A program made the translations under genes and the position numbers. The notes under the pieces are model-generated. The model was not told the DNA's origin. It did not search any database and saw nothing but the letters and a program-made list of their open reading frames with translations. From an uncultured Candidatus Saccharibacteria bacterium (GTDB lineage Bacteria > Patescibacteriota > Dojkabacteria > SC72), in contig CAZULJ010000002.1 of NCBI GenBank assembly GCA_964621195.1, forward strand, positions 83,665-147,664: a stretch of 64,000 nt of DNA, read 5' to 3'. Positions 21,251 to 62,215 of the stretch are shown here, piece after piece; within the stretch, counting starts at the first letter, position 1, and each line of letters starts with the position of its first letter.

Positions 21251-21256
21251 TATACC

Positions 21257-30388: not shown

Positions 30389-30442
30389 ATCTTTACACTT
30401 AAAGGTTTGTACTCATCTTAAATATTGATATAATCGAGAGCT

Positions 30443-33379: not shown

Positions 33380-33396
33380 CTATTATTATGGGTTTC

Positions 33397-33423
33397 TTGA
33401 CCTATCTCTCTTAATTGTAATAT
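33397..33423 (+). promoter_or_regulatory. possible sigma70-like promoter downstream of secA (TTGACC-15 bp-TAATAT)
   Basis: TTGACC at 33397-33402 and TAATAT at 33418-33423 upstream of the 33456 gene; spacer only 15 nt, so weak call. Confidence 0.2.
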
Positions 33424-33455
33424 CCTAGATTACTGTAATCAGTTAAAGTTGAATT

Positions 33456-37482: not shown

Positions 37483-39558
37483 ATGAAATATACTGCTGCC
37501 CTAAAATACATATTTCTCTTTCTTTTCACCCTTTTACTTGCACCAAATGTCTACTCACAAGGTTCATTTGAATCAATGCAGGAGGATGTAACTGTTGAGG
37601 CGAATATTACAGTTGATTTTTACTCTACAGTCAATGTTAATCCAATAACGGTAGAAATATATCAACCAAGTAATGTTGAGATAAGGGTACTATCACCTAG
37701 CGGATTGGGTATTCCTGGAAGGCAGATTGTAATACTTGCTCCTGGTTTAACGGTTACTCAACCTATTACCCTTACAAATGCGACTGGTAGAACGAACGGT
37801 TCTGTATATTCTGCTACCCCTGGTACATATACAGTGTGCGCAAAGGATACTACCTTTGGATATGATATTACGATTCAAAACTGTAGAACCTTGTATGTTG
37901 TGCCTGTCCCAATACCAAATATGTTACCGGAGCCTCAGTACACAAAGGGTTTGAGTAATATTGTTCTTTGGAGTAGCTTGGGTGCAAATTACACATACAA
38001 TGTTCAAGCGAGCGAATATTCCGATTTTAGTTCAGTATTAAGTGAATCTGGATATACCACAAACACATCCCATGAGTTTACTGGTTTAGAGGATGCCAAG
38101 ATGTATTTCTACAGAGTTCGTGCTCAAAATCAGTATGGTGGAACAGGTGCATGGTCTAATATCGTTTACAGCGTTCAGGACAATCAACCCCCAGTTATTG
38201 AAGTCCTAGATATTGGAGATGTAGGTCAAAATGATACTGTGAATTGGAGCAGTACTCATGTTGTTACAATGCTTTTTAGAGTTAGTGATAACCTTCAATT
38301 GGCGAGTACACAATTCTTCTGTCTTAATACTGGAGATAACCTAGTTGCATGTACAGATGATTACTCCTTCGAGGGGGATATTTTTACTGTTAATGTTAGA
38401 CTTGGTGATTTGGAGAGAATATCGGGTGTTTACCTTAAAGAGAGGTATGGGTTTTGTGTAGAGGCTAGTGATACAGCAACAAATATTACACGAGTATGTG
38501 ATATTTACCTTGATATTCCTAAAGGAGAGTATCCAGTAGAACCAGAGAACCCTCCAATTATTGATAGGATCGAGAAGGGTTTAGAGGATTTAGATGTAAT
38601 ACTTGATGATACAATTGGTCAATTGGATCCTAAGGATTTAGATCGTGTTACTACAACTACCTCTGTTGTGACTGCAACTTCTGCAATAGCTATCGCTGCT
38701 GGAGGTCTTGGTAGTTTGCCTTACTTCCTTCTTCAACTCTTCCTTAATCTTCTATCTTTACTTGGTTTTAGAAAGGGTGCTAAACCTGTGGGTTTTGTAT
38801 ATGATTCTGTTACAAAAGATCCAATATCACAAGCTATCGTTAGAATCTTTGATATGAACAATCGTATTGTATGGTCTGATGTAACAGATAGTAGGGGGTA
38901 TTTCAGTGCTAGATTAAAAGATGGTAGATACAGAATTTTAGTAAGGGCTCCTAGATATGCATTCCCTTCTAATGTTGTTTTTGGAAAAGAGGACTATCCT
39001 TTAACTAATGTATATCATGGTGAAGAGTTCGATATTACTTCCAATGTAGAAGCGAACTATGCAGTACCTATGGATCCTCTTGAAGTTTCGAAACTTCGTC
39101 TTTCATTGGAAACTTTCTGGGCTAGAATTAAATTCCTTGTTAATATGCTTCTCATAGTTTTATTCCTTTTAGGTTTGATATTTGCCTTCTATTCCTATTA
39201 CAACAATCCGTCCTTGTTCTCATTAATCGTATTACTCCTCTTTGTACCAACATTCTTCTTTATACTTAGAAACATATTAAGTAAAGTAGATGATTACGGT
39301 ATCGTAAGAAACAAAGAAGGTGAAAGACTTGAAGGAGTAGTTATTGGATTGAGAGAATCAGAGTTTGACAAGATAGTGGCGAAAAGGGTTACGGATATTA
39401 GGGGTAGGTATAGATTCTTTGTAGGTGAGGGTAGATACTATATTGAAATTTTAGATACTGGATACAGGGTTGAGGATATTGAAGATGGTGATGAGGTGTA
39501 TCTTAAGAAGGAGAGTTTGATTCAAAGGGATATAGTATTAACAAGGATAAAGAAGTGA
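37483..39558 (+). CDS. secreted cell-surface protein: signal peptide, Fn3-like domain(s), C-terminal membrane-anchor module shared with the 2286-aa protein
   Basis: 691 aa. Signal peptide MKYTAALKYIFLFLFTLLLAPNVYSQG; Fn3-like segment YTYNVQASEYSDFS...MYFYRVRAQNQYGGTGAWSN; Thr-rich linker, TM helix, LGFRKGAKPVGFVYDSVTKDPISQAIVRIFD (transthyretin/CarboxypepD_reg-like beta-sandwich), two further TM helices, second beta-sandwich with DKIVAKRVTDIRGRYRF. Confidence 0.6.
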   Translation: MKYTAALKYIFLFLFTLLLAPNVYSQGSFESMQEDVTVEANITVDFYSTVNVNPITVEIYQPSNVEIRVLSPSGLGIPGRQIVILAPGLTVTQPITLTNATGRTNGSVYSATPGTYTVCAKDTTFGYDITIQNCRTLYVVPVPIPNMLPEPQYTKGLSNIVLWSSLGANYTYNVQASEYSDFSSVLSESGYTTNTSHEFTGLEDAKMYFYRVRAQNQYGGTGAWSNIVYSVQDNQPPVIEVLDIGDVGQNDTVNWSSTHVVTMLFRVSDNLQLASTQFFCLNTGDNLVACTDDYSFEGDIFTVNVRLGDLERISGVYLKERYGFCVEASDTATNITRVCDIYLDIPKGEYPVEPENPPIIDRIEKGLEDLDVILDDTIGQLDPKDLDRVTTTTSVVTATSAIAIAAGGLGSLPYFLLQLFLNLLSLLGFRKGAKPVGFVYDSVTKDPISQAIVRIFDMNNRIVWSDVTDSRGYFSARLKDGRYRILVRAPRYAFPSNVVFGKEDYPLTNVYHGEEFDITSNVEANYAVPMDPLEVSKLRLSLETFWARIKFLVNMLLIVLFLLGLIFAFYSYYNNPSLFSLIVLLLFVPTFFFILRNILSKVDDYGIVRNKEGERLEGVVIGLRESEFDKIVAKRVTDIRGRYRFFVGEGRYYIEILDTGYRVEDIEDGDEVYLKKESLIQRDIVLTRIKK

Positions 39559-39613
39559 TTTGTATTGAAAAATCTTTAATCTACTGGTATTATTCTTTGT
39601 TTATATCTGAACT

Positions 39614-39686
39614 GGGTGTATAGCTCAATTGGTAGAGCAAACGGCTCTTAACCGTTAGGTTCAGGGTTCGAGCCCCTGTACACCCA
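39614..39686 (+). tRNA. tRNA-Lys (anticodon CUU), CCA not encoded
   Basis: Manual cloverleaf: acceptor GGGTGTA/TACACCC, D-arm GCTC-AATTGGTA-GAGC, anticodon stem AACGG/CCGTT with loop C-T-CTT-A-A (U33, A37), 5-nt variable loop, T-arm CAGGG-TTCGAGC-CCCTG, discriminator A. Confidence 0.9.
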
Positions 39687-39697
39687 TTTCCTCTTTT

Positions 39698-40177
39698 CTA
39701 GTGAACTATAAATGATTCTATGATAGGTTTAATATCTTCTGTATTATATTGAGGTTTAACTTTTACGACAAAAAGAGGTAGGCCAACATTTTTTAAAAGA
39801 ATATCAACAAAACTATCTCTTGTCTGTCTAGTAGGGTTTAAATGTGAAGATCCATTAAGTTCAATTACTGCTTTTATTTCAGAATTTTCATTATTTATTA
39901 GAACAAAATCAACGTGTTTAGCTATTACTCTGTTCTTATCACTTGTATAAGATTTTCCTTTCGATATTGGTTTTACAATATCAATTAGCCTAACTTTACA
40001 CATTATGGATATTGAAGAGGGAAGATTCTGAAAAAGAAATTTGTAAAAAGTTAGCTCTGAATGATTAAGTAGATATTGATTCTTTTGAAATTCAGGAACA
40101 GGTTCTTTTTTTAATAATTCGGCTATTATAAAAATGGCAATAAACAAAACAATTGGGATAATATAATATATTTCCAT
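39698..40177 (-). CDS. DUF2726-like PD-(D/E)xK nuclease-fold protein with N-terminal TM anchor
   Basis: 159 aa. N-terminal TM helix, then VDFVLINNENSEIKAVIELNGSSH, which matches the D...(I/V)ExxG..H core of DUF2726/PD-(D/E)xK proteins. Stop codon 11 bp from the tRNA 3' end. Confidence 0.5.
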   Translation of the reverse strand: MEIYYIIPIVLFIAIFIIAELLKKEPVPEFQKNQYLLNHSELTFYKFLFQNLPSSISIMCKVRLIDIVKPISKGKSYTSDKNRVIAKHVDFVLINNENSEIKAVIELNGSSHLNPTRQTRDSFVDILLKNVGLPLFVVKVKPQYNTEDIKPIIESFIVH

Positions 40178-40248
40178 GAGTCAAGTATACAAATACTAAA
40201 TATCGTGGTCAACGTTCATTAATCTTCTGATACTTTGCAGTATACTGT

Positions 40249-40282
40249 TTAGGTTCGACATCCATCCCTGGACCCCCATTTT
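40249..40282 (+). repeat. degenerate direct repeat of the tRNA-Lys 3' end (att-like remnant)
   Basis: TTAGGTTCgacatccaTCCCTGgACCCCCATTT vs tRNA 39655-39689 TTAGGTTCagggttcgagCCCCTGtACACCCATTT: identical first 8 nt and 14/17 matches over the last 17 nt. Confidence 0.35.
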
Positions 40283-40283
40283 G

Positions 40284-40736
40284 CTAGCTTATTGGTATAC
40301 TCTCTTTCTCTTGATAATCTTCTTGGAATATCAGTTCAGGGTTTTCCCTTAATTCATTGTATAGCTGTTCTCTCGTGTATTGCCTAATTTCTGTTGGTGT
40401 TTGCTCTTCTGTGCAGTACCACTCTCCTGACTCACGAATATATTCCCAATTACCTTCATCTTTAGAGAAGGTAAATATGTATACTGTCTCGTCCATCAAT
40501 TTCTGATCTGGACGGTCATAAAGCATAACCCTTAGTTTCTTGTTATCTTCTGAAGGGATCGTTCCGAAAGAACAGACTCCTCTTAGTGCTGCGAATATCT
40601 TGGCATTAATCTCAGAGTCAGACGCAAAAATTACTCCACTAGGAGTTGAGCTAGGAAATTTGTGAATGTCATCGGGGTGTACAGGTTGTGGTTGGAACGG
40701 ACTCATATGTAGTTTGCTTCCTTTGTAGAGATTCAT
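40284..40736 (-). CDS. hypothetical protein (orphan, elevated GC)
   Basis: 150-aa ORF. Codon composition noticeably GC-richer than the flanking genes. No recognizable motif. Confidence 0.4.
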   Translation of the reverse strand: MNLYKGSKLHMSPFQPQPVHPDDIHKFPSSTPSGVIFASDSEINAKIFAALRGVCSFGTIPSEDNKKLRVMLYDRPDQKLMDETVYIFTFSKDEGNWEYIRESGEWYCTEEQTPTEIRQYTREQLYNELRENPELIFQEDYQEKESIPIS

Positions 40737-40829
40737 TTATTCGAAATATTGCAAAATTAACTTTCTAAATTATACATAATTTGTTCTTCTATTCTTTACC
40801 AAGAACTTCCTTGTATGTAGAATATCATT

Positions 40830-41873
40830 ATGAATGGAGAAAAACCGTATGATCATAGTGATAACTATTTTAGGGAGGATGATAGCCCAAAACATTACGA
40901 TTCTCCCCTCTCAAGACGAACAATCAAAGAGGTTATTTCGCAAGAGAATAGCTTAAATTCCTCTGAGGATGACTTCCGTGCATCTGCGAATAAATCAAAA
41001 GAATTGTTACAACGTTACTATTCAGATCCTGCATACAGAGAATCATTAGAGGGTGCAAGGGCTTCTACGGATATCAGGGAGGGTGAAAAGTCTCCCCTCC
41101 TTATCTGTGAGGACGGTATCATTAGGAGTCGCGAGCATGCGAAGAATACTAATGGTGTCTATCTTCCTGGGGGATCCTCTCAAAGACTTGGGTATGGCCC
41201 TAAAGACATTCTTTCTGAGTCTACACCTTGGCTTCATATGTTTAGTGGTATTGAGTTTCGAAGCAACGCACAGGACCGATATTCAAAAGAACTTATAAGG
41301 TACTTAGGTGGAGTAATACCTATTGTTGTTCATGGGGAGGTAATTTCGGATAGAGTTTTAGAAAGGATTGAGATATCTGACAAATTGAGAGAAAGATTAC
41401 AAAGTACAGAAGCAGGACGCTTGATGCTTTCTTTATGTACCGTTTTACCAGCGGATATCATATCGTTGATTGAACTTGAAGATGATGTGCTATTAACCCC
41501 CAAGGAACCTACAAAAATGAAAGAAACCAAACCTAATAGAAATATATATTTCTTATCTATGAATAGCGGAGCCTTTGCTGTTAATCCCTCTGGCGTAGAA
41601 GAAACTAATTCTCTTACCCAACCATATTGTTTGAGGGATATTGTTAATCAGTATACTGAACAAATAGAAAAAGAGGGAGGTATTCCAGGAGATGGATGGG
41701 AACCTAGAAATACTGCATATGGAACAGTTGTCATGTTTGGAAATGCTGTCTTAGAGGAAGTCTTTGGGAATGGAAGATCTTTTGAAGACATCGAGGAAAA
41801 AGATCGTTTTCTTAATATCTTAATTGGAAAATATATTGCCCTAAAAGAAAGAAGCATGGTTGTTGAGTCTTAA
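40830..41873 (+). CDS. hypothetical protein (orphan, elevated GC)
   Basis: 347-aa ORF divergent from the preceding gene, GC around 42% by eye vs about 33% around. No recognizable catalytic motif. 3' end overlaps the elp3-like gene by 4 bp. Confidence 0.4.
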   Translation: MNGEKPYDHSDNYFREDDSPKHYDSPLSRRTIKEVISQENSLNSSEDDFRASANKSKELLQRYYSDPAYRESLEGARASTDIREGEKSPLLICEDGIIRSREHAKNTNGVYLPGGSSQRLGYGPKDILSESTPWLHMFSGIEFRSNAQDRYSKELIRYLGGVIPIVVHGEVISDRVLERIEISDKLRERLQSTEAGRLMLSLCTVLPADIISLIELEDDVLLTPKEPTKMKETKPNRNIYFLSMNSGAFAVNPSGVEETNSLTQPYCLRDIVNQYTEQIEKEGGIPGDGWEPRNTAYGTVVMFGNAVLEEVFGNGRSFEDIEEKDRFLNILIGKYIALKERSMVVES

Positions 41874-43465
41874 AGATCTTTCTTCATATAGAGTTTTTCA
41901 TCCTTAAACCCTCTCTTTCTATAGTACTCCCTTGTTCCTATTGCAGATATCACAGAAAGGCTAAGATAATTCTCTTTTTTTGCAATATCTTCTGCAATTT
42001 GAATCATCTTTTTACCAAGACCCAAATGTTGTGATTCACCAGAACTATTTTCACCAATATTAACTAAAGAACCGTATACATGTACCTCCCTTATCATTGC
42101 ACTACCTTTTATTTCATCTAGAAAAGAATCTTTTTTTGGTAGTGATAATCTTAGGAATGAGCATATCCTATCAGTAATTTTAGTTTTGTAAGATATGAAA
42201 TATTCTTTAGAAACGGTAGTCTCATACTCTATTACTTCTAAATCTAAATCTTCCCACCTAGCTACTTCATCCTTTATCTCTCTACTTCTAATATCCTCGA
42301 TATTCTTTCCCAAGCTTTCAATTTCTTTCTCTGCTATCTGTCTAAAGTTTGTACTTTTGTTTCCATCAATAATCTCATTAGAGGGAATATCTCTCACTAT
42401 TCTTGTTAATCTACAATACCTAGGAGTAGAGGGTAGAATATTTACAAACAATGTTAGTAATTCTTCTCTTGTGTACGGTTTGTATTTACCCTCTCTGTAA
42501 TATTTTTCTAGTATGGTATTTTCAATGATTGAAGTAGGGTAGATCTTAAGTTCATCGGGAATATATTCTTTGTTCCAGAGTTTTTTGTAATCTTGTATAT
42601 CTTTTTCTACAGAGGATCCATATAGATTTGGCATCCAATGTGCGTGTATTTTAAATCCTGCTAATCTAAGTAATTCAAATGCTTTTTTGGTTTCCTTTAT
42701 TGTATGTCCTCTCCTATTTAATTCTAGTATTTCGTTATCTAGACTCTGTATACCTATTTGTATTTTTGTTGCACCAAGTTTTCTTAATCTGATTATTTCC
42801 TCTTCTGTTATGTAATCAGGTCTAGTTTCAAGTACTAGACCAACATTTCTACATACGGTTGTTTCATTTATTCTTTGTGATTCAAAGAGATCTTCCCAAG
42901 ATATATTCTCTATACCCCTATCGTCTGAATAGTTGGTATTTCCGAAGCTATTCATTGCATCAAAACATCTTTTTACAAACCATATGATGTACTGTTCTGG
43001 ATAGAAGGAACATGTTCCTCCAAGTATTATTAACTCTATCTTGTCTGTATTATGTCCAATGTTTTGTAATGCCTTTATACGATTGTATGTTTGATTGAAG
43101 GGGTCAAATTCATTCTTTAAAGCTCTCTGTGCCCCTGGTTCACTAGAGATATATGATTTAGGCATATTCATATCATTTGGGCAGAATATACACTGTCCTG
43201 GGCATGCAAAGGGCTTCATGAGTACAGTGACAGTAGCTACCCCAGACTGAGTTCTAGTAGGTTTCATCCTAATTCTTTCCTCTATCTTTTTGTTAGGAAT
43301 GACATCTTTGTCACTTACCAATCTCTTGTACATTTCTACTAACTCATCGTGCCTATACAACCCCTTACCATCTTTGGGATATCTCTTAAGTATTGTTTGA
43401 AGGGAGTTCTCTCTCCATGTTTTTGTATTTTCTATTTGTTCAAAAATCTCTTTGAAATCTTGCAT
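41870..43465 (-). CDS. elp3: Elp3-like radical SAM + GNAT enzyme (tRNA wobble uridine carboxymethyl-modification family)
   Basis: 531 aa. KPTRTQSGVATVTVLMKPFACPGQCIFCPN (radical-SAM C-x3-C-x2-C in the Elp3 context), central TIM-barrel region, C-terminal GNAT with QHLGLGKKMIQIAEDIA acetyl-CoA binding motif. Confidence 0.8.
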   Translation of the reverse strand: MQDFKEIFEQIENTKTWRENSLQTILKRYPKDGKGLYRHDELVEMYKRLVSDKDVIPNKKIEERIRMKPTRTQSGVATVTVLMKPFACPGQCIFCPNDMNMPKSYISSEPGAQRALKNEFDPFNQTYNRIKALQNIGHNTDKIELIILGGTCSFYPEQYIIWFVKRCFDAMNSFGNTNYSDDRGIENISWEDLFESQRINETTVCRNVGLVLETRPDYITEEEIIRLRKLGATKIQIGIQSLDNEILELNRRGHTIKETKKAFELLRLAGFKIHAHWMPNLYGSSVEKDIQDYKKLWNKEYIPDELKIYPTSIIENTILEKYYREGKYKPYTREELLTLFVNILPSTPRYCRLTRIVRDIPSNEIIDGNKSTNFRQIAEKEIESLGKNIEDIRSREIKDEVARWEDLDLEVIEYETTVSKEYFISYKTKITDRICSFLRLSLPKKDSFLDEIKGSAMIREVHVYGSLVNIGENSSGESQHLGLGKKMIQIAEDIAKKENYLSLSVISAIGTREYYRKRGFKDEKLYMKKDL

Positions 43466-43476
43466 CCTGTATTATA

Positions 43477-44697
43477 CTACGACCTTGCAGCTAAAATCCC
43501 TGTACTCCAACATATTTGTAAATTGTATCCACCAGTTGGACCATATACATCAATTATCTCTCCTGCGAAGTAAAGATTTTTAACAATCTTAGATTGCATA
43601 GTTTTAGGATCAATTTCTTTAATATTTACTCCCCCTGCTGTAACTATCGCTTTATCCCAAGAGCCTATCTCTTGAACGGTTAACCTAAAATCTTTCAAAA
43701 GTGTAAGTATCTTTAGACGATCATCTCTAGTTATCTCAAATCCCTGTTTTGAGGAAGGGATTTCGCTTCTTTCAATCACAATGGGTATTAAGGATGAAGG
43801 TAAGAGTTCTTTCAGTATTGTTCTTAAATTTTTCTTACTATTTATCCTTAACTCCTCCTGTAATCTGGTATCTAGCTCTTGTGTAGGTATAGCGGGTTTA
43901 AAGTCTATGCTTAACTCTACTTCGCCTTGTTCTAGTGCATCCCCAACAATTCTAGACATATCTATTACAATTGGTCCACTCAAACCTTCGTGAGTAAAGA
44001 GTGCTTCTCCAAATTTACTAATGATTCTTTTCTCTGCTTGGTATGCTGATATTGTCACATATTTTAATGAGAGGCCAGCAAGGTCTTTAACCCAATTTTC
44101 TTTACAAAGAATGGGTACAAGAGCTGGCTTTGGTTGTACAATTGTATGCCCGACACTTTGTGCAAGTGTATATCCATCACCATTTGATCCTGTTACTGGG
44201 TATGATTTCCCTCCTGTAGCTAATATATATTTCTTTGCTTTAAATTCTCCTTTGTATGTATTTACAGAGGTTATTGCTTCTCCCTCCATATTGAAATTGA
44301 GTACTGAGGTATTAGGTAGGATATTCTCTCCTACAAGATGCTGAAATGCATATACAATATCTACGGCTTTGTCACTTTCGGGAAATACCCTTTTTCCTCT
44401 TTCTACCTTTAGTGGTACTTTAAGTACTTCTTCAAAGTATTGGAGAGTATCTTTTACAGTAAATCTTGAGAAAGCTCCGTAGAGGAATTTCCCATTTCTT
44501 TGATATTTGGATATTAGATCATCTAAATCAAGATTGTAGTTTGTTACGTTACATCTACCTTTGCCTGTTAGTACTATCTTTTTACCAGGCCTAGGATTTC
44601 TCTCGATTATTAGAAAGTTCTCGCCTCTCCTTTTACATTCAACACCAGCCATTAAGCCTGCAGCTCCTCCCCCAATTATTATTGTGTCGTATATCAT
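43477..44697 (-). CDS. HI0933/YhiN-family FAD-dependent oxidoreductase (aminoacetone oxidase family)
   Basis: 406 aa. MIYDTIIIGGGAAGLMAG dinucleotide-binding motif, ...GKGRCNVTN typical of the HI0933-like family. Confidence 0.8.
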   Translation of the reverse strand: MIYDTIIIGGGAAGLMAGVECKRRGENFLIIERNPRPGKKIVLTGKGRCNVTNYNLDLDDLISKYQRNGKFLYGAFSRFTVKDTLQYFEEVLKVPLKVERGKRVFPESDKAVDIVYAFQHLVGENILPNTSVLNFNMEGEAITSVNTYKGEFKAKKYILATGGKSYPVTGSNGDGYTLAQSVGHTIVQPKPALVPILCKENWVKDLAGLSLKYVTISAYQAEKRIISKFGEALFTHEGLSGPIVIDMSRIVGDALEQGEVELSIDFKPAIPTQELDTRLQEELRINSKKNLRTILKELLPSSLIPIVIERSEIPSSKQGFEITRDDRLKILTLLKDFRLTVQEIGSWDKAIVTAGGVNIKEIDPKTMQSKIVKNLYFAGEIIDVYGPTGGYNLQICWSTGILAARS

Positions 44698-44780
44698 CTT
44701 GCAATTATACTATTTATTTCTGTTGATGGTGGTAAACATATGTATTAGAATTAGTGAATAACTTGAGAGAAGAAAGATTC

Positions 44781-46030: not shown

Positions 46031-46106
46031 CTCTTCTTGATTATATCAATTAATGTAGGGATATTTTTGTAGTATAATCGGGGGAAGTTATTTTTTTAAG
46101 GATAAT

Positions 46107-47114
46107 ATGAAAAAAGTTGAATACAAAGTAGAGGTTTTTACAGGTATTAGACCATCTGGTGGTCTTACTATTGCTAATGCTATTGGTGCTGTAAACCCTA
46201 TTGTAAAACTACAAAATGAAGAAGAGATAGGTAATACGATGGTATTTGTAGCAGACTTACATGCTTTAACTGATGGTGAACCAAATGAGACACAGGGTCA
46301 TGTATTGGATGTTGTTAAGGACTATATCGCACTGGGTTTGGATCCTAAAAGAAACAGTATATTTGTACAATCCTCTTTAATTCAGGAGATCGGTGAATTA
46401 AATTTATATCTTTCAAGACTAGTAACTATTGCCGAGTTAATGAGAGTACCAACATTAAAGGAGAAGATAAAGAAGGGGCAGAATGAGAGTAATGCCAATT
46501 CTCTTTTAGCTATGTACCCTATTATGATGGCATCTGATATTCTTTTGCAAAGATCTGAGTATGTACCTGTTGGTGAGGATCAGGTTGCTCATATTGAGAT
46601 TACTAGAGTATTAGCACAAAAATTTAACAAGAAGTATGGTGAGACATTACCATTGCCAAAGGTTTTATCCTTAGGTGCACCAGTGAGAGTAAAGTCTTTA
46701 AATGGTAACGGTAAGATGAGTAAGAGTGATCCTAGTGGAGCAATACTGCTTGATGATCCAATAGAAGTATCCCTTAACAAGATTAAGAGAGCTCAGACAG
46801 CATTCGCGAAGGAGAGCTCAGATTCTCTAGATGCTTTAATTATGATTGGTGAGTATGTTTCAAATGAGGAGGAGAAAGAGCAGTTGAAGGGAATAATTAA
46901 GAGGCATTATGAAGGTGAGAATGTTATGGGTGAATTTAAATCTGCTTTGAGTATTCCATTAGAGAGATTCTTAACAGAGTTCCAATCTAAAAAGAATGAG
47001 ATTAGTAACCAGGATATTGAAAAGAAAATTATAGAGGATTGTGCAATAGCGAAAAAGAATGCTCAAGAAACTATCTCTATGGTTCGCAAGGCAATGGGTT
47101 TAAGATATATCTAA
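46107..47114 (+). CDS. trpS: tryptophan--tRNA ligase
   Basis: 335 aa. FTGIRPSGGLTIANAIGAV (TrpRS-type HIGH region), GKMSKSDPSG (KMSKS), typical TrpRS length. Confidence 0.85.
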   Translation: MKKVEYKVEVFTGIRPSGGLTIANAIGAVNPIVKLQNEEEIGNTMVFVADLHALTDGEPNETQGHVLDVVKDYIALGLDPKRNSIFVQSSLIQEIGELNLYLSRLVTIAELMRVPTLKEKIKKGQNESNANSLLAMYPIMMASDILLQRSEYVPVGEDQVAHIEITRVLAQKFNKKYGETLPLPKVLSLGAPVRVKSLNGNGKMSKSDPSGAILLDDPIEVSLNKIKRAQTAFAKESSDSLDALIMIGEYVSNEEEKEQLKGIIKRHYEGENVMGEFKSALSIPLERFLTEFQSKKNEISNQDIEKKIIEDCAIAKKNAQETISMVRKAMGLRYI

Positions 47115-50100
47115 ATCTTTTGAATCTTTAATTTCCTGCTTACAAGCATCTTTCCTTTGGACTCTATTTCTGTATTACCTTCAACAATTTTTACACTGTT
47201 GTCTGTTGTTTCTATTACAAATTCCCCTTTCTCAGAGATATCAAATGAGTACTTTCCATTTTCATCTGTAACTCTCTTTGCAACAATTTTGTCAAAATCT
47301 TTGTCTTTAAGTACCAAGGTAATATTTGAAGCTGGTGTTCCATCGGTATATGTTACCTTTCCGGATTTCTTACCCAAAGAGGTGAAGCTTTTAATCAAGA
47401 CATAGGTTGTTGGTATGTACAGGAGTAGGAGTGCAAGATTTGCTAGGCTTGATTCTTTGTTGTATACGTAGAGTGCTGTAGTTACTCCTGCCAAGAAGAG
47501 TATGCTGTTTAGGAATGGTAGTATCAAAGAGATTCCACTTCTAATTACTGTCAATGTTTTTTGGTTGGAGAGATCCTTTTTGGGATCCATGGGTATTACT
47601 ACATTGATCTCATTTTCTAACAATCTAATCTTTTCTCCGTGGTATACATTTGAAAGTGGGTAGTCTTCTCTTCCAATTATTAATCTTGATGGGAATGAGA
47701 AGTTTCTTTTCTTAACTTCGAGTATGTAATCTCCTGCTTCTAAACCAACTCTAAAGAGACCTTGCCCATCTGTCACACTGGTTTCTACAAGTTTCTCGGA
47801 TAGATCATATATTCTAACTATAGCTTGTTGAAGTGGGGCTCTTGTGACTGAATCATATACATATCCTGATGGGAATCTTTTTCTCCTAAACCCTAATGTA
47901 CTCAGTATATTTATTACAACTTGTGAAATTGAGTATCCAAGCTGTCCAATATTTCCTAGTACAGAGGCTAAACTTACAGATACTGTTACTGCAGTTGTTG
48001 TTGCTGCAACTGTTGTAAGTTGTTCCTGTTCAATATTCCCCAGTGGTGTTTGATCCAAACTCTCAATTGTTTTTGTAATTGCTCCTTCTACTGCTTGGGT
48101 TATTACTTTTGTTACACTACTTTGTGGTGTACTTGTGGGAGTTTCTTTTTCCTGGGTAATAATTACTTCTCCTTGTCCACCAGTTCCTACTAAACCATCT
48201 GCAATCCAATACATTACTCCTGATACGCTTGCTTGGGAGACTGTTACATCAGATCCTTCGACTTTTTGTTTTTGTGGGAATGTCCCAGTATAGAGGACTC
48301 CATTTGGACAATCTTGTGATACTTCTTCTAATGTAGTGGCTTCTGGACATATTCTAAAACCGTTATCACTGTCTTTCTTTACAACATACATTGTAAATTT
48401 GTCTGTTAAACCGTGTGTTTGATTAATTTTAACAACACTCTTTCCCTCGGATGGGGATGATTTGATTATTGCATTACTCCAATCTCTGTTGTCTGTAAAT
48501 GAAATAGGGAGATCGGCGACTATATACTCATCTGTAAGTACCCTTACTTTTTGTGTTCCTGTTTGTGCTCCATCTATAGTACTAACATCTATTTGTGTAT
48601 TATCTACAAGTGCTGTTGTTATTTCTTCTGGCTTGTTTACAATTATGGAGTATGTTTTACCAGTGTTACTCTCTACATAGTTTGTTTCTACATTAGAACT
48701 GTTTATAGCCTTTGCTCTGAAGGAGTACTGAACCCCTGGTTCTAGATTCCTAAATATTATCCCACTAGTACCACCCCAAGAGGTATAGCTTCCCCAGACT
48801 GGACTATCGACTAATGTTTGGGTTGAGTAATCAAGATATTTCCCGCTGTTCTTTTCCTGTATTGCGAATCTAGTCGAGGAGGGATTTGTATTTCTATCAA
48901 ATTTGATCCTACCAGTACTTCCTCCAATTGTCTCAAATGTAAGATCTTTTGGTGTATTTGCCCATGTTGTAACTGTTACATTTTCAGACCATTGAGAGTA
49001 TACATTATCTGAATTTACTGTTCTGACTTTGAATGTATATGTTGTATTGGGTGGTAGATTAGAGAGTGTGAAATTACTTGTTACCCTTGTATCTGTGTGC
49101 AATACAGTACTGTTTGTAAACCTGTTCTCATTATCTATATTACCATTTGTAGTGACTTCCAGTAGTTGGTAGGTAGTATTTGTTGGGTTACCATTCTTGT
49201 TCACAGTGATCTCAATTGATGATGAGCCTGTTACCCTTGTTGTTAATGTAGATGTCTTTGAGAGTGTATATGCACTTAAGCTTTGTGAGCATGGTGTTTG
49301 TATATTTTCAATATTCTTTGCTTTTACACAGAATGTATACAAGGTATTGGGAGATAGGTTTTGAATATTTAACCCAGTAAATCCTCCAATTTCTTCATAT
49401 GTTTTCCAAAGAGTTTGCGATGTCAAAGATGCACTATCTACACTCTTGTTGCTGATTGTTTCTAGAAGATTGTAAAGTGTTGTATCGTTGTTTCCTCCGT
49501 TGTTTACTACTACCTTTACTGTTGTTGTATCAATTGCCTCTACAGATACTATGCTTGGTGAGTTTGAGAGTGTAGTAACAGTTTGTTCTCCGCTAAATGC
49601 AGTATCAACAAGATCGATGTTTTGAGCTTTTGCTCTGAAGGTGTATGTAATATTAGGATTAAGACCATATATTGTAATTCCATCTGTAAGTCCTAGCTGT
49701 GTGTATGTTGAGTAGTAGGGGGACTCTTGTAGTAATTGTGTTTCAGAGTTAAGGTAGAGGCCGGAAGTTTTCTCTTCTATGAGATATTTTGTAACTTCTG
49801 GATTTTCTTTGATATCTATCTTTACTGTTATACTCTCTGCGTCATAGTTTCCTTGTTGTATATCAAATATTGCAGGTGTTTGAGCGAATGTGCTGCCCTG
49901 TACTGTGTTTGAGAAATCACTCTCTGCAATATTGTTGTAGATCTTAAATTTGCGAGTATATGTTGTATTTGTTTGTAAAGAATCCTCTGTACATGAGGTT
50001 ATACCATCACCTAAACATGTTTTAAGTAAATCTCCGCTTTCATTGTAGACTTTTATACCTAATACTGTGTCTGAGTAAGCAGAAATTCTCCATGTTATCT

Positions 50101-53100
50101 GGCTATCTGAATTTACTGTTGGTGTTAAAGCTGTGATATTTGAAAGTGCTGTTGTAGAAGATTGTGTTGCTGAGTAAGCTGTCTCTATGAGATCCATATT
50201 TCTTGCTTTTACTCTGAATGTATATGTAATACCTGATTGTAGTCCAGATACTGTTATTGTAGGTGTTAAACCATCTAAATGTCCCCATACTGGTGTAGGT
50301 TCAAGTAATCCTGTTGAAAGGTTTACATACATTCCTGAGTAAGTTTCCTGTAAGAGGAGCTCTGTGTGGTTGGGATTTGTTTCTTTGTTAATTTGTACAT
50401 CTATTTGTGAGCTGTTTAATGTTGTTGCATTCTCAATACTTGGGACAACTGCTAAGGTCCATGCGGCTACTTCTGAGGAGTAACTTGTTTCTTCCCCTGT
50501 ATAGTTTCGAGCTTTTACTCTAAAAGAGTACTCACTGTTTGGTTGAAGATTGATTGCAACATCTGTAGTACTTTTAACCCAATCTTGTATACCAGTGTCA
50601 CACTCCTCTATTGTGCAGTCAAAGAATATTCCAGAGTCTCCTGCTGATAGATTTTGAACTCCTGTCCCACTAAGCGAAATTGATGTTGTTGAGAGTGGTC
50701 CTGCTGTTAATGTTGGTATTGGTGCGTGAGTATATATATTTAGATCTGTGGAGTAACTTGTTTCAATATTGTCATTGTTTCTAGCTTTTACTCTGAATGT
50801 GTATCCAGTATTGTTTGTTAGTCCTGTTACATTGGCACTGTTTGTTGTTGTCCATGTATTAAGGTTTGTATCACAATCTCCCTCGCAATCAAAGTAGAGT
50901 TCTCCTCCGTTTACTGGCTGAGAGGCCAGTATCGTTATCGATGAAGAAGTTTTACTGCCTTGGTATTGTAGAGTAGGGACAGATATTAATGTGTAGACAG
51001 AATCTGTGTTTGATCCACTACTATCTGCTTCTGTATTGTAAGCTACAGCATATCTAGTATATTGTGTGTTTTCTGAAAGTGTTGTTTCATCGCAGTATGT
51101 AATGTTTTCTCCTGTACATGTCTTAACTAAGGTATTGTCCTGATCATATATCTTAATACCCTGTTCTCCATTTGCGTTATCTGTAAATGACCAACGGATC
51201 GAAGTTGTAGAAAGTGCTTGTCCAACCAAGTTAGTTGGTGTCCCTGGTAGGTCTAATGTTCTAAATGTATTTGTTGCAGACCAATTACTTACTGATCCTG
51301 ATGTATCCCAGAATCTAATTCTCCAGTAGTAAGTGGTTCCATCTTGATTAAGTGTACTACCATTGTAAGTAATTGCTGAGGATCTTAAATTGTTTATGAG
51401 ATTTGGCATAGATATTTGCCCAGAATCCCACATTACTGTTCCAGTAAAAGAGGAGTTTGTATTGACTTCTACTTCGTAGTAATTTGCAGGATCATTGTCT
51501 GCATCAGTGTGTATTGCTGTAAATGACGGAGTTAAATTTGTAAGTTGTGTCGGATTTACAAGTCCATCTGTTTGTAGAGAGGATGGAGCATCAGGTACCC
51601 TGTTCATTGTAAAAGATCCTCCGTTTGTCCAGTTACTTACAGTGTTATTGCTATCCCAGAATCTAATTCTCCAGTAATATGTTGTACCGTTTAATGTCAG
51701 TGGTACACCATTGTAAGGTATATCAGTACTTCTACTTCCACTTGCAATCGGTGTTGTAGCAATTTGCCCCGAATCCCACATTACTGTTCCAGTAAAAGAG
51801 GAATTAGTATTAACCTCTATTTCGTAGTAATTACCTGTGTCTCCATCGGGATCTGAAAAGAGTGCTGAAAATTCCGGAGTTGTGTCGATTACTCTCGTTG
51901 GAGAGAATACACCTTCGACAAATGGTGTTAGAGGAGAGTTCGGAGTTGTATTCATTCTGAAATTTGCAACTGTAGACCAGCTACTTACTGTCCCATGGTT
52001 ATCTGTAAACCTAATCCTCCAGTAATATGTTGTACCGTTTAATACTAATAGTGTCCCATTGTATGGTATATCTGGACTTTTTGTTCCGCTTGCGGTTGGT
52101 GTCATTGCTGTTTGTCCGGAAGACCACATAACGGTTCCTGTAAAGGAGGGGTTTGTATTTACATCTATTTCATAGTATACCCCCATGTCACCAATATCTA
52201 AGTCGTCAAATTCTGCACTAAATTCTGGTGTGAGATCTGTAACTCTTGTAGGATTGTTAACACCTTCTGTCAAAAGGGTTGTTGGAATGCCTGGAGTAGT
52301 GTTCATATTGAAATTCGCGGTAGAAGACCAAGATCCAACTGTACCATAGTTGTCGGTAAATCTAATTCTCCAGTAATATGTGGATCCATTTAGTGAAAGT
52401 GCCGATCCTGAATATGAGACATCAGGGCTTCTTGCTCCGATTGCAATTGAAAGCATTGGTACCTGTCCGGTGTCCCACATCACTGTTCCAGTAAATGAGG
52501 AGTTTGTATTTACCTCTATTTCGTAGTAGCTTGCGGTATTTCCAGAGTTTGGATCGTTAAAGATTGCGCTAAACTCAGGTGTAGTATCTGTTATCCCCGT
52601 AGGATTTGTTGCAGCTTCAATTAAAAGGGAAGTTGGAGCACTAGGTGCTGTATTCATGGCAAAAGTCGCTGTAGATGACCAGGACCCTACGGTCCCATGG
52701 CTATCTGTAAATCTAATTCTCCAGTAATATGTTGTACCGTTTAATGTAAGTGCGATTCCTGTATATGAAAAGTCTGGACTCCTTGAGCCTATTGCTGTTG
52801 AAACCATTGGAACTTGACCAGAGTCCCACATTACTGTTCCTGTAAAAGAGGAGTTTGTATTTACCTCTATTTCGTAGAAATCTGCAGTATTACCAGAGTT
52901 TGAATCATTAAAGATTGCACTAAATTCTGGAGTGGTATCTGTTACACCAACTGGATTTGTAGCTCCTTCTGAAAGTAGTGATGTTGGTGCTGCTGGAGCT
53001 GTGTTCATTGTGAAGTTTGCAACAGATGACCAAGTGCCTACCGCTCCATAATTATCTGTAAATCTAATTCTCCAGTAATATGTAGTTCCATTTAGTGAAA

Positions 53101-53971
53101 GTTCAGTGCCTGCATACGTGATATTTGGACTTCTAGCACCTATTGCCGTGGAAGTCATAGATACCTGTCCAGAATCCCACATGACAGTCCCGGTAAAAGA
53201 GGAATTCGTGTTTACCTCTATCTCGTAGTAAGTACCAGTATTTCCTGCATTGCTGTCATTAAAGATGGCACTAAACTCAGGTGTAGTATCAGTGACTCCT
53301 GTTGGATTCGTAGCTCCCTCTGCAAGAAGAGATGTCGGTGCTGTTGGTGCTGTGTTCACTAATACAAAGGTGGCATTAAAAGAGAGATTCGCTGTGACAT
53401 CGGTTTCAATTCTTGGGTTTGCTGTAGATCCATCGCTCCATTGTGAAAATGCATATCCACCATTTGGAACTGCAGTGACTGCTGTACCATTGCTACCTCT
53501 ACATACCGATTGAGATGTCGTTCCAGAGAGTGTTCCTCCAGCACTTGCTGTATATGTTAGGGTGTACTTTAGAAGCCAGAATGTCCATGTTGTAGTTCCA
53601 CATGATCCACATCCATCATATCTAGTACATGAGTTTGTAGTTGAAGAACAACCTGTGTTTGTTGTTGTATATCCTGATGGGGTAGAAGGTGTGCAGCTAC
53701 CACACGAGCCACAATCAGGTTCGCATATATCACAGCAGTATCCAAACCCAGCATCAAACTCACTTGCATAGCAGCTTACTCTAGATACACATCCCCCTGG
53801 TCCTGTACAAACATTTAGTGGTACATTTGCTTCACACCCACTCGGGCATGTTAATGCTTCTACAGGAGTTGATGCAAAGTTGAGAAAAAAGAGTGAAAGT
53901 AATGATACAAAGAGGGATATTCCAGAAAAAAAGAGTAATCTTCTACTATTATTAGTCTTTATCTTTATCAT
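47111..53971 (-). CDS. giant (2286 aa) secreted cell-surface protein: signal peptide, Cys-rich N-terminal region, 7 tandem 117-aa Fn3-like repeats, further diverged Ig/Fn3-like domains, C-terminal membrane-anchor module
   Basis: Single uninterrupted ORF. N-terminal signal/TM. About 20 Cys in residues 35-140 (CPSGCEANVPLNVCTGPGGC...CCDICEPDCGSCGSC). Repeats TAPxAPTSLL..GATNPTGVTDTTPEFSAIFND...YYEIEVNTNSSFTGTVMWDSGQ...YYWRIRFTD...W. C-terminal LGFRRKRFPSGYVYDSVTRAPLQQAIVRIYD ... DKIVAKRVTDENGKYSF homologous to the C-terminus of 37483..39558. Confidence 0.7.
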   Translation of the reverse strand: MIKIKTNNSRRLLFFSGISLFVSLLSLFFLNFASTPVEALTCPSGCEANVPLNVCTGPGGCVSRVSCYASEFDAGFGYCCDICEPDCGSCGSCTPSTPSGYTTTNTGCSSTTNSCTRYDGCGSCGTTTWTFWLLKYTLTYTASAGGTLSGTTSQSVCRGSNGTAVTAVPNGGYAFSQWSDGSTANPRIETDVTANLSFNATFVLVNTAPTAPTSLLAEGATNPTGVTDTTPEFSAIFNDSNAGNTGTYYEIEVNTNSSFTGTVMWDSGQVSMTSTAIGARSPNITYAGTELSLNGTTYYWRIRFTDNYGAVGTWSSVANFTMNTAPAAPTSLLSEGATNPVGVTDTTPEFSAIFNDSNSGNTADFYEIEVNTNSSFTGTVMWDSGQVPMVSTAIGSRSPDFSYTGIALTLNGTTYYWRIRFTDSHGTVGSWSSTATFAMNTAPSAPTSLLIEAATNPTGITDTTPEFSAIFNDPNSGNTASYYEIEVNTNSSFTGTVMWDTGQVPMLSIAIGARSPDVSYSGSALSLNGSTYYWRIRFTDNYGTVGSWSSTANFNMNTTPGIPTTLLTEGVNNPTRVTDLTPEFSAEFDDLDIGDMGVYYEIDVNTNPSFTGTVMWSSGQTAMTPTASGTKSPDIPYNGTLLVLNGTTYYWRIRFTDNHGTVSSWSTVANFRMNTTPNSPLTPFVEGVFSPTRVIDTTPEFSALFSDPDGDTGNYYEIEVNTNSSFTGTVMWDSGQIATTPIASGSRSTDIPYNGVPLTLNGTTYYWRIRFWDSNNTVSNWTNGGSFTMNRVPDAPSSLQTDGLVNPTQLTNLTPSFTAIHTDADNDPANYYEVEVNTNSSFTGTVMWDSGQISMPNLINNLRSSAITYNGSTLNQDGTTYYWRIRFWDTSGSVSNWSATNTFRTLDLPGTPTNLVGQALSTTSIRWSFTDNANGEQGIKIYDQDNTLVKTCTGENITYCDETTLSENTQYTRYAVAYNTEADSSGSNTDSVYTLISVPTLQYQGSKTSSSITILASQPVNGGELYFDCEGDCDTNLNTWTTTNSANVTGLTNNTGYTFRVKARNNDNIETSYSTDLNIYTHAPIPTLTAGPLSTTSISLSGTGVQNLSAGDSGIFFDCTIEECDTGIQDWVKSTTDVAINLQPNSEYSFRVKARNYTGEETSYSSEVAAWTLAVVPSIENATTLNSSQIDVQINKETNPNHTELLLQETYSGMYVNLSTGLLEPTPVWGHLDGLTPTITVSGLQSGITYTFRVKARNMDLIETAYSATQSSTTALSNITALTPTVNSDSQITWRISAYSDTVLGIKVYNESGDLLKTCLGDGITSCTEDSLQTNTTYTRKFKIYNNIAESDFSNTVQGSTFAQTPAIFDIQQGNYDAESITVKIDIKENPEVTKYLIEEKTSGLYLNSETQLLQESPYYSTYTQLGLTDGITIYGLNPNITYTFRAKAQNIDLVDTAFSGEQTVTTLSNSPSIVSVEAIDTTTVKVVVNNGGNNDTTLYNLLETISNKSVDSASLTSQTLWKTYEEIGGFTGLNIQNLSPNTLYTFCVKAKNIENIQTPCSQSLSAYTLSKTSTLTTRVTGSSSIEITVNKNGNPTNTTYQLLEVTTNGNIDNENRFTNSTVLHTDTRVTSNFTLSNLPPNTTYTFKVRTVNSDNVYSQWSENVTVTTWANTPKDLTFETIGGSTGRIKFDRNTNPSSTRFAIQEKNSGKYLDYSTQTLVDSPVWGSYTSWGGTSGIIFRNLEPGVQYSFRAKAINSSNVETNYVESNTGKTYSIIVNKPEEITTALVDNTQIDVSTIDGAQTGTQKVRVLTDEYIVADLPISFTDNRDWSNAIIKSSPSEGKSVVKINQTHGLTDKFTMYVVKKDSDNGFRICPEATTLEEVSQDCPNGVLYTGTFPQKQKVEGSDVTVSQASVSGVMYWIADGLVGTGGQGEVIITQEKETPTSTPQSSVTKVITQAVEGAITKTIESLDQTPLGNIEQEQLTTVAATTTAVTVSVSLASVLGNIGQLGYSISQVVINILSTLGFRRKRFPSGYVYDSVTRAPLQQAIVRIYDLSEKLVETSVTDGQGLFRVGLEAGDYILEVKKRNFSFPSRLIIGREDYPLSNVYHGEKIRLLENEINVVIPMDPKKDLSNQKTLTVIRSGISLILPFLNSILFLAGVTTALYVYNKESSLANLALLLLYIPTTYVLIKSFTSLGKKSGKVTYTDGTPASNITLVLKDKDFDKIVAKRVTDENGKYSFDISEKGEFVIETTDNSVKIVEGNTEIESKGKMLVSRKLKIQKI
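51030..53360 (-). repeat. in-frame coding tandem repeat, 7 copies, 351-bp period (one copy 328 bp)
   Basis: Recurring AATCTAATTCTCCAGTAATATG anchor at 53061, 52710, 52359, 52008 (variant), 51660, 51332 on the + strand; protein-level repeats more than 70% identical. Confidence 0.75.
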
Positions 53972-62103: not shown

Positions 62104-62215
62104 AGTATTTTGAGTATACAATTGTGTTAAATGAAGGGCAACAGGATATGACTTTACCTTGAAAACACGGGTTTCAAAAACACTTTCGTGTCTTCAAGGT
62201 ATTGTCGTTGTTAAT

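Follow-up and report, generated by a model that had tools for sequence, protein, structure and literature searches.

A duplicated C-terminal module of about 300 residues in surface proteins of Candidatus Dojkabacteria, a proposed polytopic membrane anchor

We describe a C-terminal module that is homologous in two surface proteins, pA and pB, is found at the C-terminus of many different cargos, contains an internal duplication with domains of the CarboxypepD_reg/transthyretin-like fold, and lacks the known sorting motifs. The reading we favor, with a probability of roughly 0.6, is that this stretch of about 300 residues is a self-contained polytopic anchor that links passengers on the surface to two conserved, paired cytoplasmic domains. 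That its role is anchoring we infer from its position and predicted topology.

Two surface proteins with a common C-terminal block

The two proteins are encoded in a 64-kb stretch of DNA analyzed as a whole (the window). Both have an uncultured Candidatus Dojkabacteria bacterium (CPR/Patescibacteria) as their source organism. The two ORFs delimited by the first-pass annotation were confirmed, with translations matching their description.

37483..39558, + strand: pA, 691-aa surface protein (ORF, translation, Pfam)
37483..37557, + strand: pA signal peptide, residues 1-25, ending ...NVYS before QG (hydrophobic N-terminal segment in the sequence)
47111..53971, - strand: pB, 2286-aa giant surface protein (ORF, translation, Pfam)
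48137..48904, - strand: pB residues 1690-1945, additional membrane-proximal extracellular block found in the pB class (BLASTP)

Signal peptide-like segments are present at the N-terminus of both proteins, and in pA cleavage is predicted between ...NVYS and QG. From the N-terminus on, pA consists of the signal peptide, a Big_1/fn3-like passenger, and the C-terminal module, while pB begins with a signal peptide, an InlB-B-repeat-like domain, and seven Rha78A-N-like Ig domains, followed by an fn3 array, the membrane-proximal block, and the module. The membrane-proximal block, which pA does not have, is 37 to 71% identical (BLASTP) to sequences of 23 representative clusters whose giant proteins bear the module. 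The pA orthologue (approximately 690 to 725 aa) is conserved and syntenic in the Dojkabacteria loci examined, and pB has orthologues of 2252 and 2282 aa at loci L051 and L059, with the same synteny.

The co-linear C-terminal block reported for the pair was borne out by BLASTP, which aligned pA 363-689 with pB 1965-2286 at 121/328 identical residues (37%), 59% positives, and 7 gaps (E = 6e-58), a value that rules out chance or low-complexity similarity. All the motifs quoted in its support were found, namely, LGFRK/LGFRR and DKIVAKRVTD, as were the paired beta-sandwich segments GFVYDSVTKDPISQAIVRIFD / GYVYDSVTRAPLQQAIVRIYD and EDYPLTNVYHGEE / EDYPLSNVYHGEK. The passengers, described as unrelated, indeed show no overall homology, their sole similarity being weak fn3-like matches (E >= 0.015, BLASTP). 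Neither tblastn nor a broader HMM search revealed a third copy in the 64-kb window besides those in pA and pB.

Anatomy, fold, and predicted topology of the module

The segments of the two copies are as follows; those of pB were placed by their BLASTP register with pA, and their translations were checked.

38548..38646, + strand: pA "stalk," an acidic amphipathic helix (residues 356-388) predicted to lie just outside the membrane (family column statistics)
38647..38712, + strand: pA H1a, residues 389-410, VTTTTSVVTATSAIAIAAGGLG, proposed TM1, outside to inside (hydropathy, AF2)
38713..38784, + strand: pA H1b, residues 411-429, predicted to be an amphipathic juxtamembrane helix, with the basic stop-transfer motif RK(G)AK at residues 430-434
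38785..39078, + strand: pA beta-sandwich 1, residues 435-532, CarboxypepD_reg/transthyretin-like
39127..39279, + strand: pA TM2 (549-573), short predicted outside loop (574-580), and TM3 (581-599), forming a helical hairpin
39295..39546, + strand: pA beta-sandwich 2, residues 605-688, a homologue of the first sandwich (Pfam, AF2, hhalign)
47117..48100, - strand: pB module copy, whole
48011..48100, - strand: pB stalk
47945..48010, - strand: pB H1a
47873..47944, - strand: pB H1b plus RRKRF
47582..47872, - strand: pB beta-sandwich 1 (PF13620 at pB 2035-2091)
47459..47533, - strand: pB TM2
47381..47437, - strand: pB TM3
47117..47365, - strand: pB beta-sandwich 2

In the family-wide alignment columns, hydrophobic positions recur every 3 to 4 residues in the stalk, D/E are overrepresented, and the helical moment is 1.08, a pattern compatible with a role as a coiled coil. 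The part that follows had been described as a Thr-rich linker and a TM helix. That linker turned out not to be a separate element but to open a charge-free hydrophobic stretch of 41 residues, and the TM helix resolved into two helices with a Pro-containing break between them. H1a is charge free, with a mean hydrophobicity of 1.52 and a low helical moment (0.26). The first hydrophobic region as a whole is only moderately hydrophobic, the pB copy lying below the Kyte-Doolittle threshold of 1.6, and AF2 models H1a as a helix with low confidence (pLDDT of ~48 to 60 for the region). H1b has a helical moment of 0.86 and K or R at column 418 in 31% of the members, and the stop-transfer columns 430 to 432 are K or R in 83 to 89%. 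Beta-sandwich 1 carries a family-specific insert, FPS...D.P..N.Y.G...IP.DP. The TM2-TM3 hairpin is supported by hydropathy and by AF2 helices at 537-574 and 578-600, and it contains the near-invariant polar residues N580 and Y587, together with G564; near-invariant residues in the domains are K445, R454, D504, Y511, D531, R635, and R644. Beta-sandwich 2 gave weak SdrD_B, SpaA, and CarboxypepD_reg matches in Pfam and pLDDT values of 86 to 93 in AF2.

The assignment of the first beta-sandwich to the CarboxypepD_reg/transthyretin-like fold was upheld by profile matches to PF13620 above the gathering score (54.4 bits for pA and 37.2 bits for pB against a cut-off of 32.3). All 12 divergent members matched this family as well, and the domain has the transthyretin-like seven-stranded beta-sandwich fold. 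Within the module, the beta-sandwiches are the only parts matching known families, and the Pfam models span just about 60 of its ~300 residues. Alignment of the first half of the module with the second by hhalign (98.7% probability, E = 3.4e-16) identifies it as an internal duplication, missed by the first-pass annotation, in which a helix, a basic linker, and a beta-sandwich occur twice. The match of H1b to TM3 in that alignment prompted us to consider H1b as a true TM helix, a candidate ruled out by its shortness, amphipathicity, and charges in distant members. Whether H1a or H1b is taken as the spanning helix, the net result is one crossing.

The predicted topology places the N-terminus outside, followed by three crossings, with the C-terminus inside. 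By the positive-inside rule and amino acid composition, both beta-sandwiches are probably cytoplasmic, contrary to the surface location that had been implied for them. The mean number of K+R in the flanks is 3.5 after H1b, 3.1 before TM2, and 2.6 after TM3, and it is low in the last 15 stalk residues (1.1, net charge of -1.3) and in the TM2-TM3 loop (0.6). The K+R fraction of the two beta domains (0.11 to 0.21) resembles that of cytoplasmic proteins encoded in the same window (0.12 to 0.17); in the passengers it is 0.046 to 0.049, with S/T/N/Q/G accounting for 0.37 to 0.46. The passengers mostly have even numbers of Cys (66 even, 32 odd), and 117 of 125 modules have 0 or 1 Cys. To our knowledge, CarboxypepD_reg/transthyretin-like domains are nearly always extracytoplasmic, and a cytoplasmic pair would be unusual against this background. 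Three conserved D/N residues of the insert, D504, N509, and D531, could form a Ca2+ site, which would favor an outside location.

On these predictions, the passenger would be exported via its Sec signal peptide, and the acidic amphipathic stalk helix would lead into a first membrane crossing by H1a. The amphipathic juxtamembrane H1b and the near-invariant R/K-K-K stop-transfer motif would come next, with CarboxypepD_reg-type beta-sandwich 1 directly behind the motif on the cytoplasmic face. The TM2-TM3 hairpin would then pass out of the cell and back in, and the homologous beta-sandwich 2 would end the protein in the cytoplasm. Because of this export and three-crossing arrangement, the module could fix passengers of any size (fn3, PKD, cadherin-like, beta-helix, lectin arrays, adhesin-like) in the single membrane without any processing enzyme. 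The membrane-apposed cytoplasmic pair itself probably mediates oligomerization or binds a cytoplasmic or lipid partner.

Distribution of the module and its gene neighborhoods

An exhaustive profile search gave 1041 representatives at E <= 1e-30, and the best 150 of these were inspected. One full-length module was found in 125 of these 150 representative clusters, and the distance between its end and the C-terminus is 0 to 36 residues in 123 of them and 43 and 75 residues in the other two. The host proteins range from 261 to 4258 aa and carry fn3, PKD, Big_1, cadherin-like, beta-helix, LamG, or Gly-rich domains, so the proposed reuse of the module on unrelated cargos extends to at least 125 clusters with differing passengers. 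An N-terminal signal-like hydrophobic segment is present in 81 of the 93 complete-looking members. Named sources are almost all CPR (Dojkabacteria, Microgenomates, and Andersenbacteria), and among CPR/Patescibacteria the module was seen most often in Dojkabacteria; a metagenome scan yielded 15 loci, about 10 with a full module. Two members have little folded passenger. P0282 has 438 aa and comes from a 140-kb contig; P0195, with 316 aa, is possibly incomplete since its contig is 1.8 kb. Given such forms, in which the extracellular region is short or of low complexity, the module may do more than anchor. Some members have an added N-terminal cytoplasmic receiver domain (P0242, 42.4 bits; P0185, 30.1 bits).

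We also looked for known sorting signals, and the statement that the module is not of the LPXTG, PEP-CTERM, T9SS CTD, or SLH type stood, there being neither a motif nor a family match. None of 127 modules contains LPxTG, the basic cluster is not the protein end (about 260 residues come after it in pA and pB), and no sortase was found among the scanned ORFs of the 64-kb window. The PEP-CTERM NCBIfam (TIGR) model gave zero matches, with the string "PEP" in 1 of 127 modules. T9SS CTD models (Pfam, NCBIfam) matched neither pA and pB nor the divergent members, and the module has three hydrophobic helices, compared with the TM-free T9SS CTD. SLH repeats (PF00395) gave zero matches at E <= 0.01. The view that this is not a described system agrees with our searches of Pfam, NCBIfam, the PDB, and the literature, none of which yielded a model, structure, or publication spanning the whole module; the literature search returned no published description, and Pfam and NCBIfam scans detected no signaling or enzymatic domain or motif in it.

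The further suggestion, that of a sorting system served by a processing enzyme, was not sustained. Neighborhoods vary among paralogues and lineages, the neighbors of 19 module genes cluster as synteny blocks only, with no recurring enzyme, and in Microgenomates and Andersenbacteria the contexts are housekeeping genes. A large glycan-synthesis cluster adjoins pA. One further gene lies next to pB.

53968..54519, - strand: 183-aa small membrane protein (4-nt overlap with the pB start)

This gene is a probable operon partner of pB. The sequence of its product has a signal peptide and a C-terminal TM segment plus a basic tail, gave zero Pfam matches, and is kept upstream of the pB orthologues at L051 (39% identity) and L059 (34%).

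Alternative explanations and relation to known systems

It is possible, at the level of a minority view, that the module is the functional unit itself (for outside-in or inside-out signaling, coupling, or as an oligomeric platform) and the passengers are its sensors or payloads. Its conservation, with near-invariant polar residues, is far above the needs of a passive anchor, in P0195 and P0282 the extracellular region amounts to no more than a short or low-complexity stretch, receiver domains stand at the N-terminus of P0242 and P0185, and the heptad-like stalk pattern suggests oligomers. Folding and packing alone could, however, account for the conservation, known signaling or enzymatic domains are lacking, and the loci compared share no conserved partner gene. 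We regard as unlikely an arrangement with both beta-sandwiches extracytoplasmic and H1a/H1b a hairpin or not membrane spanning, the module being a wall-and-membrane anchor. Under that arrangement, the domains would bind peptidoglycan, teichoic acid-like polymers, or the glycan of the neighboring cluster. H1a and H1b are indeed two helices with a Pro turn, resembling the TM2/TM3 hairpin in the duplication, the conserved acidic/amide residues could bind Ca2+, and the glycan-synthesis cluster is adjacent to pA. Yet about 9 K/R per chain would then lie outside and <2 inside, violating the positive-inside rule, and the domains are like cytoplasmic proteins and unlike the passengers in composition. 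Moreover, H1b is unlikely to span the membrane because it is short, amphipathic, and R/E/P bearing in distant members (P0282, P0283, and P0195).

A location at the C-terminus, a hydrophobic stretch with a basic cluster behind it, and use with many different cargos would also suit a sorting signal recognized and removed by a dedicated sortase-, exosortase-, or rhombosortase-like enzyme. We consider this highly improbable, as conserved, folded sequence continues for about 260 residues after the hydrophobic-plus-basic element, the motif counts are those given above, with sorting-signal families unmatched, and the 19 loci of differing context share no neighbor enzyme. The module has the same three features in common with the LPXTG/sortase, PEP-CTERM/exosortase, and PGF-CTERM/archaeosortase systems, but those tripartite signals are about 30 to 40 residues long, form the protein end, are marked by a short signature motif, and depend on a dedicated enzyme, whereas the module has no such motif, 260 more residues, and no partner enzyme at the loci compared.

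In manner of working, the anchor that we favor resembles that of giant surface proteins retained through a transmembrane segment at their C-terminus, such as Staphylococcus aureus Ebh and Mycoplasma adhesins. As in Ebh, there is an export signal, a long repetitive extracellular region, and a C-terminal span plus a basic cytoplasmic part, with no covalent wall linkage; the likeness is one of function and not of membership, since there is no sequence relationship. Unlike the single helices with unrelated tails of the Ebh type, the module is a conserved three-crossing unit with two folded domains and many passengers. It differs from other CarboxypepD_reg/transthyretin-like domains (PF13620, PF13715; CnaB, SdrD-B, and SpaA relatives) in that its domains lie directly behind a helix and basic linker, the unit occurring twice with a TM hairpin between, with its own insert and a predicted cytoplasmic location. 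NOMO (a BOS complex subunit) and EMC7-type domains are, in contrast, lumenal and strung together in long tandem arrays, with one TM at the C-terminus, and have no significant sequence relationship to the module beyond the fold. The NikL-family ECF transporter subunit (NF058648), which is a small membrane protein and has a similar beta-sandwich, gave weak matches in 9 of 12 divergent modules (best E = 1.2e-5). These reach <= 25 bits against a cut-off of 100 and extend over only about 50 residues in one of the beta domains, and the architecture of the NikL family differs.

The module bears on how CPR/Patescibacteria, which are generally assumed to be attached to other cells, hold and control very large surface proteins. 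With a single module HMM, much of the surface proteome can probably be retrieved in Dojkabacteria and in certain other CPR lineages, with numerous "hypothetical" giant proteins among it. The module offers a concrete topology with unexpected, predicted cytoplasmic CarboxypepD_reg-like domains and is a candidate surface-cytoplasm interface in organisms with very few recognizable signaling systems; should the topology be wrong, it would still be an undescribed wall- or membrane-anchoring unit. Speculatively, it could be a CPR-wide transmembrane coupling device in which the cytoplasmic transthyretin-like pair, of a fold that we otherwise know only from outside the cytoplasm, links giant adhesins to a cytoplasmic partner or lattice in an integrin-like manner. 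If so, host cell attachment could be sensed or controlled from inside. Some of the adhesins concerned also have the N-terminal receiver domain.

The shared C-terminal module

Both open reading frames were found where the first-pass annotation had placed them, and all the motifs quoted there were present in the translations.

37483..39558, + strand: pA, ORF for a surface protein of 691 aa
47111..53971, - strand: pB, ORF for a giant surface protein of 2286 aa

The common C-terminal block reported for the two proteins was recovered by BLASTP, in which pA 363-689 aligned with pB 1965-2286 (121/328 identical, 37%; 59% positives; 7 gap positions; E 6e-58). Outside this module the likeness was only marginal and fn3-like (E >= 0.015), so that the description of the N-terminal extracellular parts (passengers) as unrelated was essentially right, although both are built from Ig/fn3-type domains. 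According to Pfam, the pA passenger contains Big_1 and fn3-like domains, and that of pB an InlB-B-repeat-like domain, seven Rha78A-N-like Ig domains, and an fn3 array. The pB class also has a membrane-proximal extracellular block of ~250 aa with a Cys pair (pB residues 1690-1945; window 48137..48904, - strand), which pA lacks; its identity to the counterparts in 23 representative clusters of giants is 37-71%. Neither tblastn nor a broader HMM revealed a third module copy within the 64-kb window.

The anatomy of the module was deduced from column statistics (127 sequences), hydropathy, and an AlphaFold2 model of pA 371-691 (pLDDT 78, pTM 0.59).

Elements of the module (pA numbering)
356-388: stalk helix, acidic and amphipathic, with hydrophobic positions every 3-4 residues
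389-410: H1a, rich in Thr, Ala, Val, Ser, and Gly, evenly hydrophobic
414-429: H1b, amphipathic, Q/K/R at position 418; H1a and H1b form a charge-free stretch of 41 residues, the turn between them often containing Pro
430-432: basic motif, K/R in 83-89% of sequences
435-532: beta-sandwich 1
549-573: TM2, preceded by a basic amphipathic helix
TM2-TM3 loop: 7 residues
581-599: TM3
605-688: beta-sandwich 2, preceded by a basic linker

Near-invariant among the 127 sequences were K445, R454, G472, P495, D504, Y511, and D531 in sandwich 1, G564, N580, and Y587 in the TM hairpin, and R635 and R644 in sandwich 2. In a profile-profile comparison, the helix-basic linker-sandwich 1 half was homologous to the TM3-basic linker-sandwich 2 half (98.7% probability, E 3.4e-16), and the WGxVYD...AVVRIFD...FPS...D motifs of sandwich 1 are retained in sandwich 2 of distant members. 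Together these two observations indicate that the module is an ancient internal duplication.

At the domain level, the sandwiches belong to the CarboxypepD_reg family, but no model of Pfam (2025) or NCBIfam (2026) and no entry of the PDB (2026) extends over the whole module, and no description of it was found in the literature searched. The earlier remark that it was not recognised as a described system agrees with this for the module as a whole; its single domains do map to a known family. In public records the proteins are named "hypothetical" or "carboxypeptidase regulatory-like domain-containing." The nearest functional analogues would be giant surface proteins that a membrane span at the C-terminus keeps in place, such as Staphylococcus aureus Ebh and the Mycoplasma adhesins.

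Distribution and passenger range

The window has a low GC content (~35%), and close homologues carry the name Candidatus Dojkabacteria (WS6), which belongs to the CPR/Patescibacteria. When one genome of each species was scanned, 60 loci were obtained, and in all of them the module lay at the extreme C-terminus of its ORF. Two size classes were seen: conserved pA orthologues of ~690-725 aa in Dojkabacteria genomes, and a long class spanning 834 to 2282 aa. The gene order GT4, GT4, sugar transferase, RecO, pA, radical-SAM, NDK, UDG, TrpRS, and convergent pB was kept across the Dojkabacteria loci examined, and in four of them (L001, L004, L009, and L013) the two module genes were separated by 7-9 kb, which is also the arrangement in the window.

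When 1.84 billion representative proteins were searched exhaustively with an HMM, 7111 matched at E <= 1e-3 (1041 at E <= 1e-30), with organism names for only a few. Among the best 150 of the 7111, 125 had one full-length module per protein, in hosts of 261-4258 aa; the stretch between its end and the C-terminus measured 0-36 residues in 123 of them, 43 in one of the remaining two, and 75 in the other. The passengers across the family include fn3 arrays, Big_1, PKD, Big_9, cadherin-like, right-handed beta-helix/NosD, LamG/ConA-like lectin, DUF2341, and Gly-rich domains, so that the proposed repeated use on different cargo was strongly confirmed. The remaining 25 were rejected as fragments or as giants with 18-67 tandem CarboxypepD_reg repeats, which match one domain only. 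P0122, P0123, P0124, and ~20 others are giants of up to 6305 aa with high module-profile scores and without the TM architecture of the module; a census by the module HMM must therefore demand a full-length match.

With a profile built from highly divergent modules, the most distant ones in the set, proteins of the same module architecture were also retrieved from Candidatus Microgenomates (P0240, a PKD-domain protein) and Candidatus Andersenbacteria (P0282). Another module protein, P0109 (L049, JAVEUZ010000083.1), lies on a 4.1-kb contig labelled Flavobacteriaceae bacterium. The biofilm study from which it comes also yielded a Dojkabacteria MAG, in which a same-length partial homologue (P0108, L048) has its module at identical contig coordinates, and the Flavobacteriaceae label probably reflects mis-binning, not an occurrence outside the CPR.

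Predicted topology and proposed mode of anchoring

The passengers must lie outside the cell, since 81 of 93 complete-looking members have a hydrophobic signal-like N-terminal segment, the number of Cys in the passenger is more often even (66) than odd (32), and internal hydrophobic 19-mers are nearly absent. The mean K+R number was 3.5 after H1b, 3.1 before TM2, and 2.6 after TM3, against 1.1 in the last 15 stalk residues (net charge -1.3) and 0.6 in the TM2-TM3 loop. By the positive-inside rule, these flanks predict an N-terminus outside, three crossings, and a C-terminus inside, which would place both sandwiches in the cytoplasm, held tight to the membrane by basic linkers of 5-8 residues. 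Amino acid composition independently agrees with this placement.

Fractions of K+R and of S/T/N/Q/G
Passengers: 0.046-0.049; 0.37-0.46
Two beta domains: 0.11-0.21; 0.19-0.32
Ten cytoplasmic proteins of the window: 0.12-0.17; 0.20-0.30

To our knowledge, however, the CarboxypepD_reg/transthyretin-like fold is normally extracytoplasmic, and we put the probability that both sandwiches are cytoplasmic at roughly two in three. The first span is likelier to be H1a than H1b, as judged from sequence, because H1b has the higher helical moment (0.86 versus 0.26) and in distant members comprises only 13-16 residues, with R, E, or P. Against H1a counts its moderate hydrophobicity, which in pB falls below the Kyte-Doolittle threshold of 1.6; AlphaFold2 confidence is low for both helices (pLDDT ~48-60). 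On this view the module would be a duplicated anchor, spread across the lineage, that combines three helices with two sandwiches; the predicted cytoplasmic site of the latter is unexpected.

The module had been proposed to serve a dedicated anchoring or sorting system distinct from the LPXTG, PEP-CTERM, T9SS-CTD, and SLH types. The distinction stands: LPxTG occurred in 0/127 modules and the string "PEP" in 1/127, and no sorting-signal, T9SS-CTD, or SLH model of Pfam or NCBIfam matched the window proteins or 12 divergent members. Sorting by a dedicated enzyme was not supported. The hydrophobic-plus-basic element is followed by ~260 conserved, folded residues instead of ending the protein, and among the clustered neighbours of 19 module genes no protease or transpeptidase recurred, only synteny blocks. 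Neighbourhoods vary between paralogues and lineages, the Microgenomates and Andersenbacteria copies being flanked by ribosomal, polymerase, RNase Y, FtsK, and RecA genes. Most simply, the module would be a polytopic anchor that inserts by itself rather than a signal for a dedicated enzyme. The passenger would be exported via Sec (a SecA gene lies at 30443..33379), transfer would stop at H1a and the basic motif, and the TM2/TM3 hairpin would then insert. The acidic, heptad-like stalk may be a coiled coil taking the passenger across the wall.

Strong conservation suggests that the module does more than anchor passively, as do two kinds of members. The extracellular part of P0282 (438 aa, on a 140-kb contig) is only a low-complexity tail. 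P0242 (WKZ31380.1, 4258 aa) has an N-terminal receiver domain (Response_reg, 42.4 bits; cut-off, 30.2), and P0185 (2543 aa) has a match at 30.1 bits against the same cut-off; in both, a TM helix and then beta-helix, cadherin-like, and Big_9 passengers follow. It is unusual for a surface protein to carry a receiver domain. On these grounds one may speculate that the cytoplasmic pair oligomerises or binds a cytoplasmic or lipid partner.

Other features of the window

The left half (1..37480) is a large cell-envelope glycan cluster with several GT2, GT4, and GT11 glycosyltransferases, DUF2142, a Polysacc_synt flippase, GDP-mannose 4,6-dehydratase, and nucleotidyl transferase. The following also lie there.

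559..1314: DsbA-like thioredoxin
5080..6586: ABC-2 permease and ATPase pair, in the glycan cluster
23775..25982: histidine kinase
28949..30388, - strand: M23 peptidase

At 62001..64000 the GC content is 0.435 versus ~0.35 elsewhere, with no rRNA or other Rfam family found. A tRNA-Lys(CTT) gene (39613..39687, + strand) directly follows the pA stop codon, and the ~2.2 kb beyond it encode a DUF2726 protein (39698..40177, - strand), a 150-aa ORF, and a 347-aa ORF, with 1, 5, and 0 homologues, respectively, among 60 related Dojkabacteria loci; 39613..41873 resembles a small tRNA-associated island of variable content. A 183-aa ORF (53968..54519, - strand) and the start codon of pB overlap by 4 nt. 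Its product has a signal peptide, beta-rich and acidic portions, and, at the C-terminus, a TM followed by a basic tail; it matched no Pfam family beyond a weak hit to Ca_tandemer. Conserved counterparts lie upstream of pB orthologues in L051 (39% identity) and L059 (34%), and the ORF is a possible operon partner of pB.
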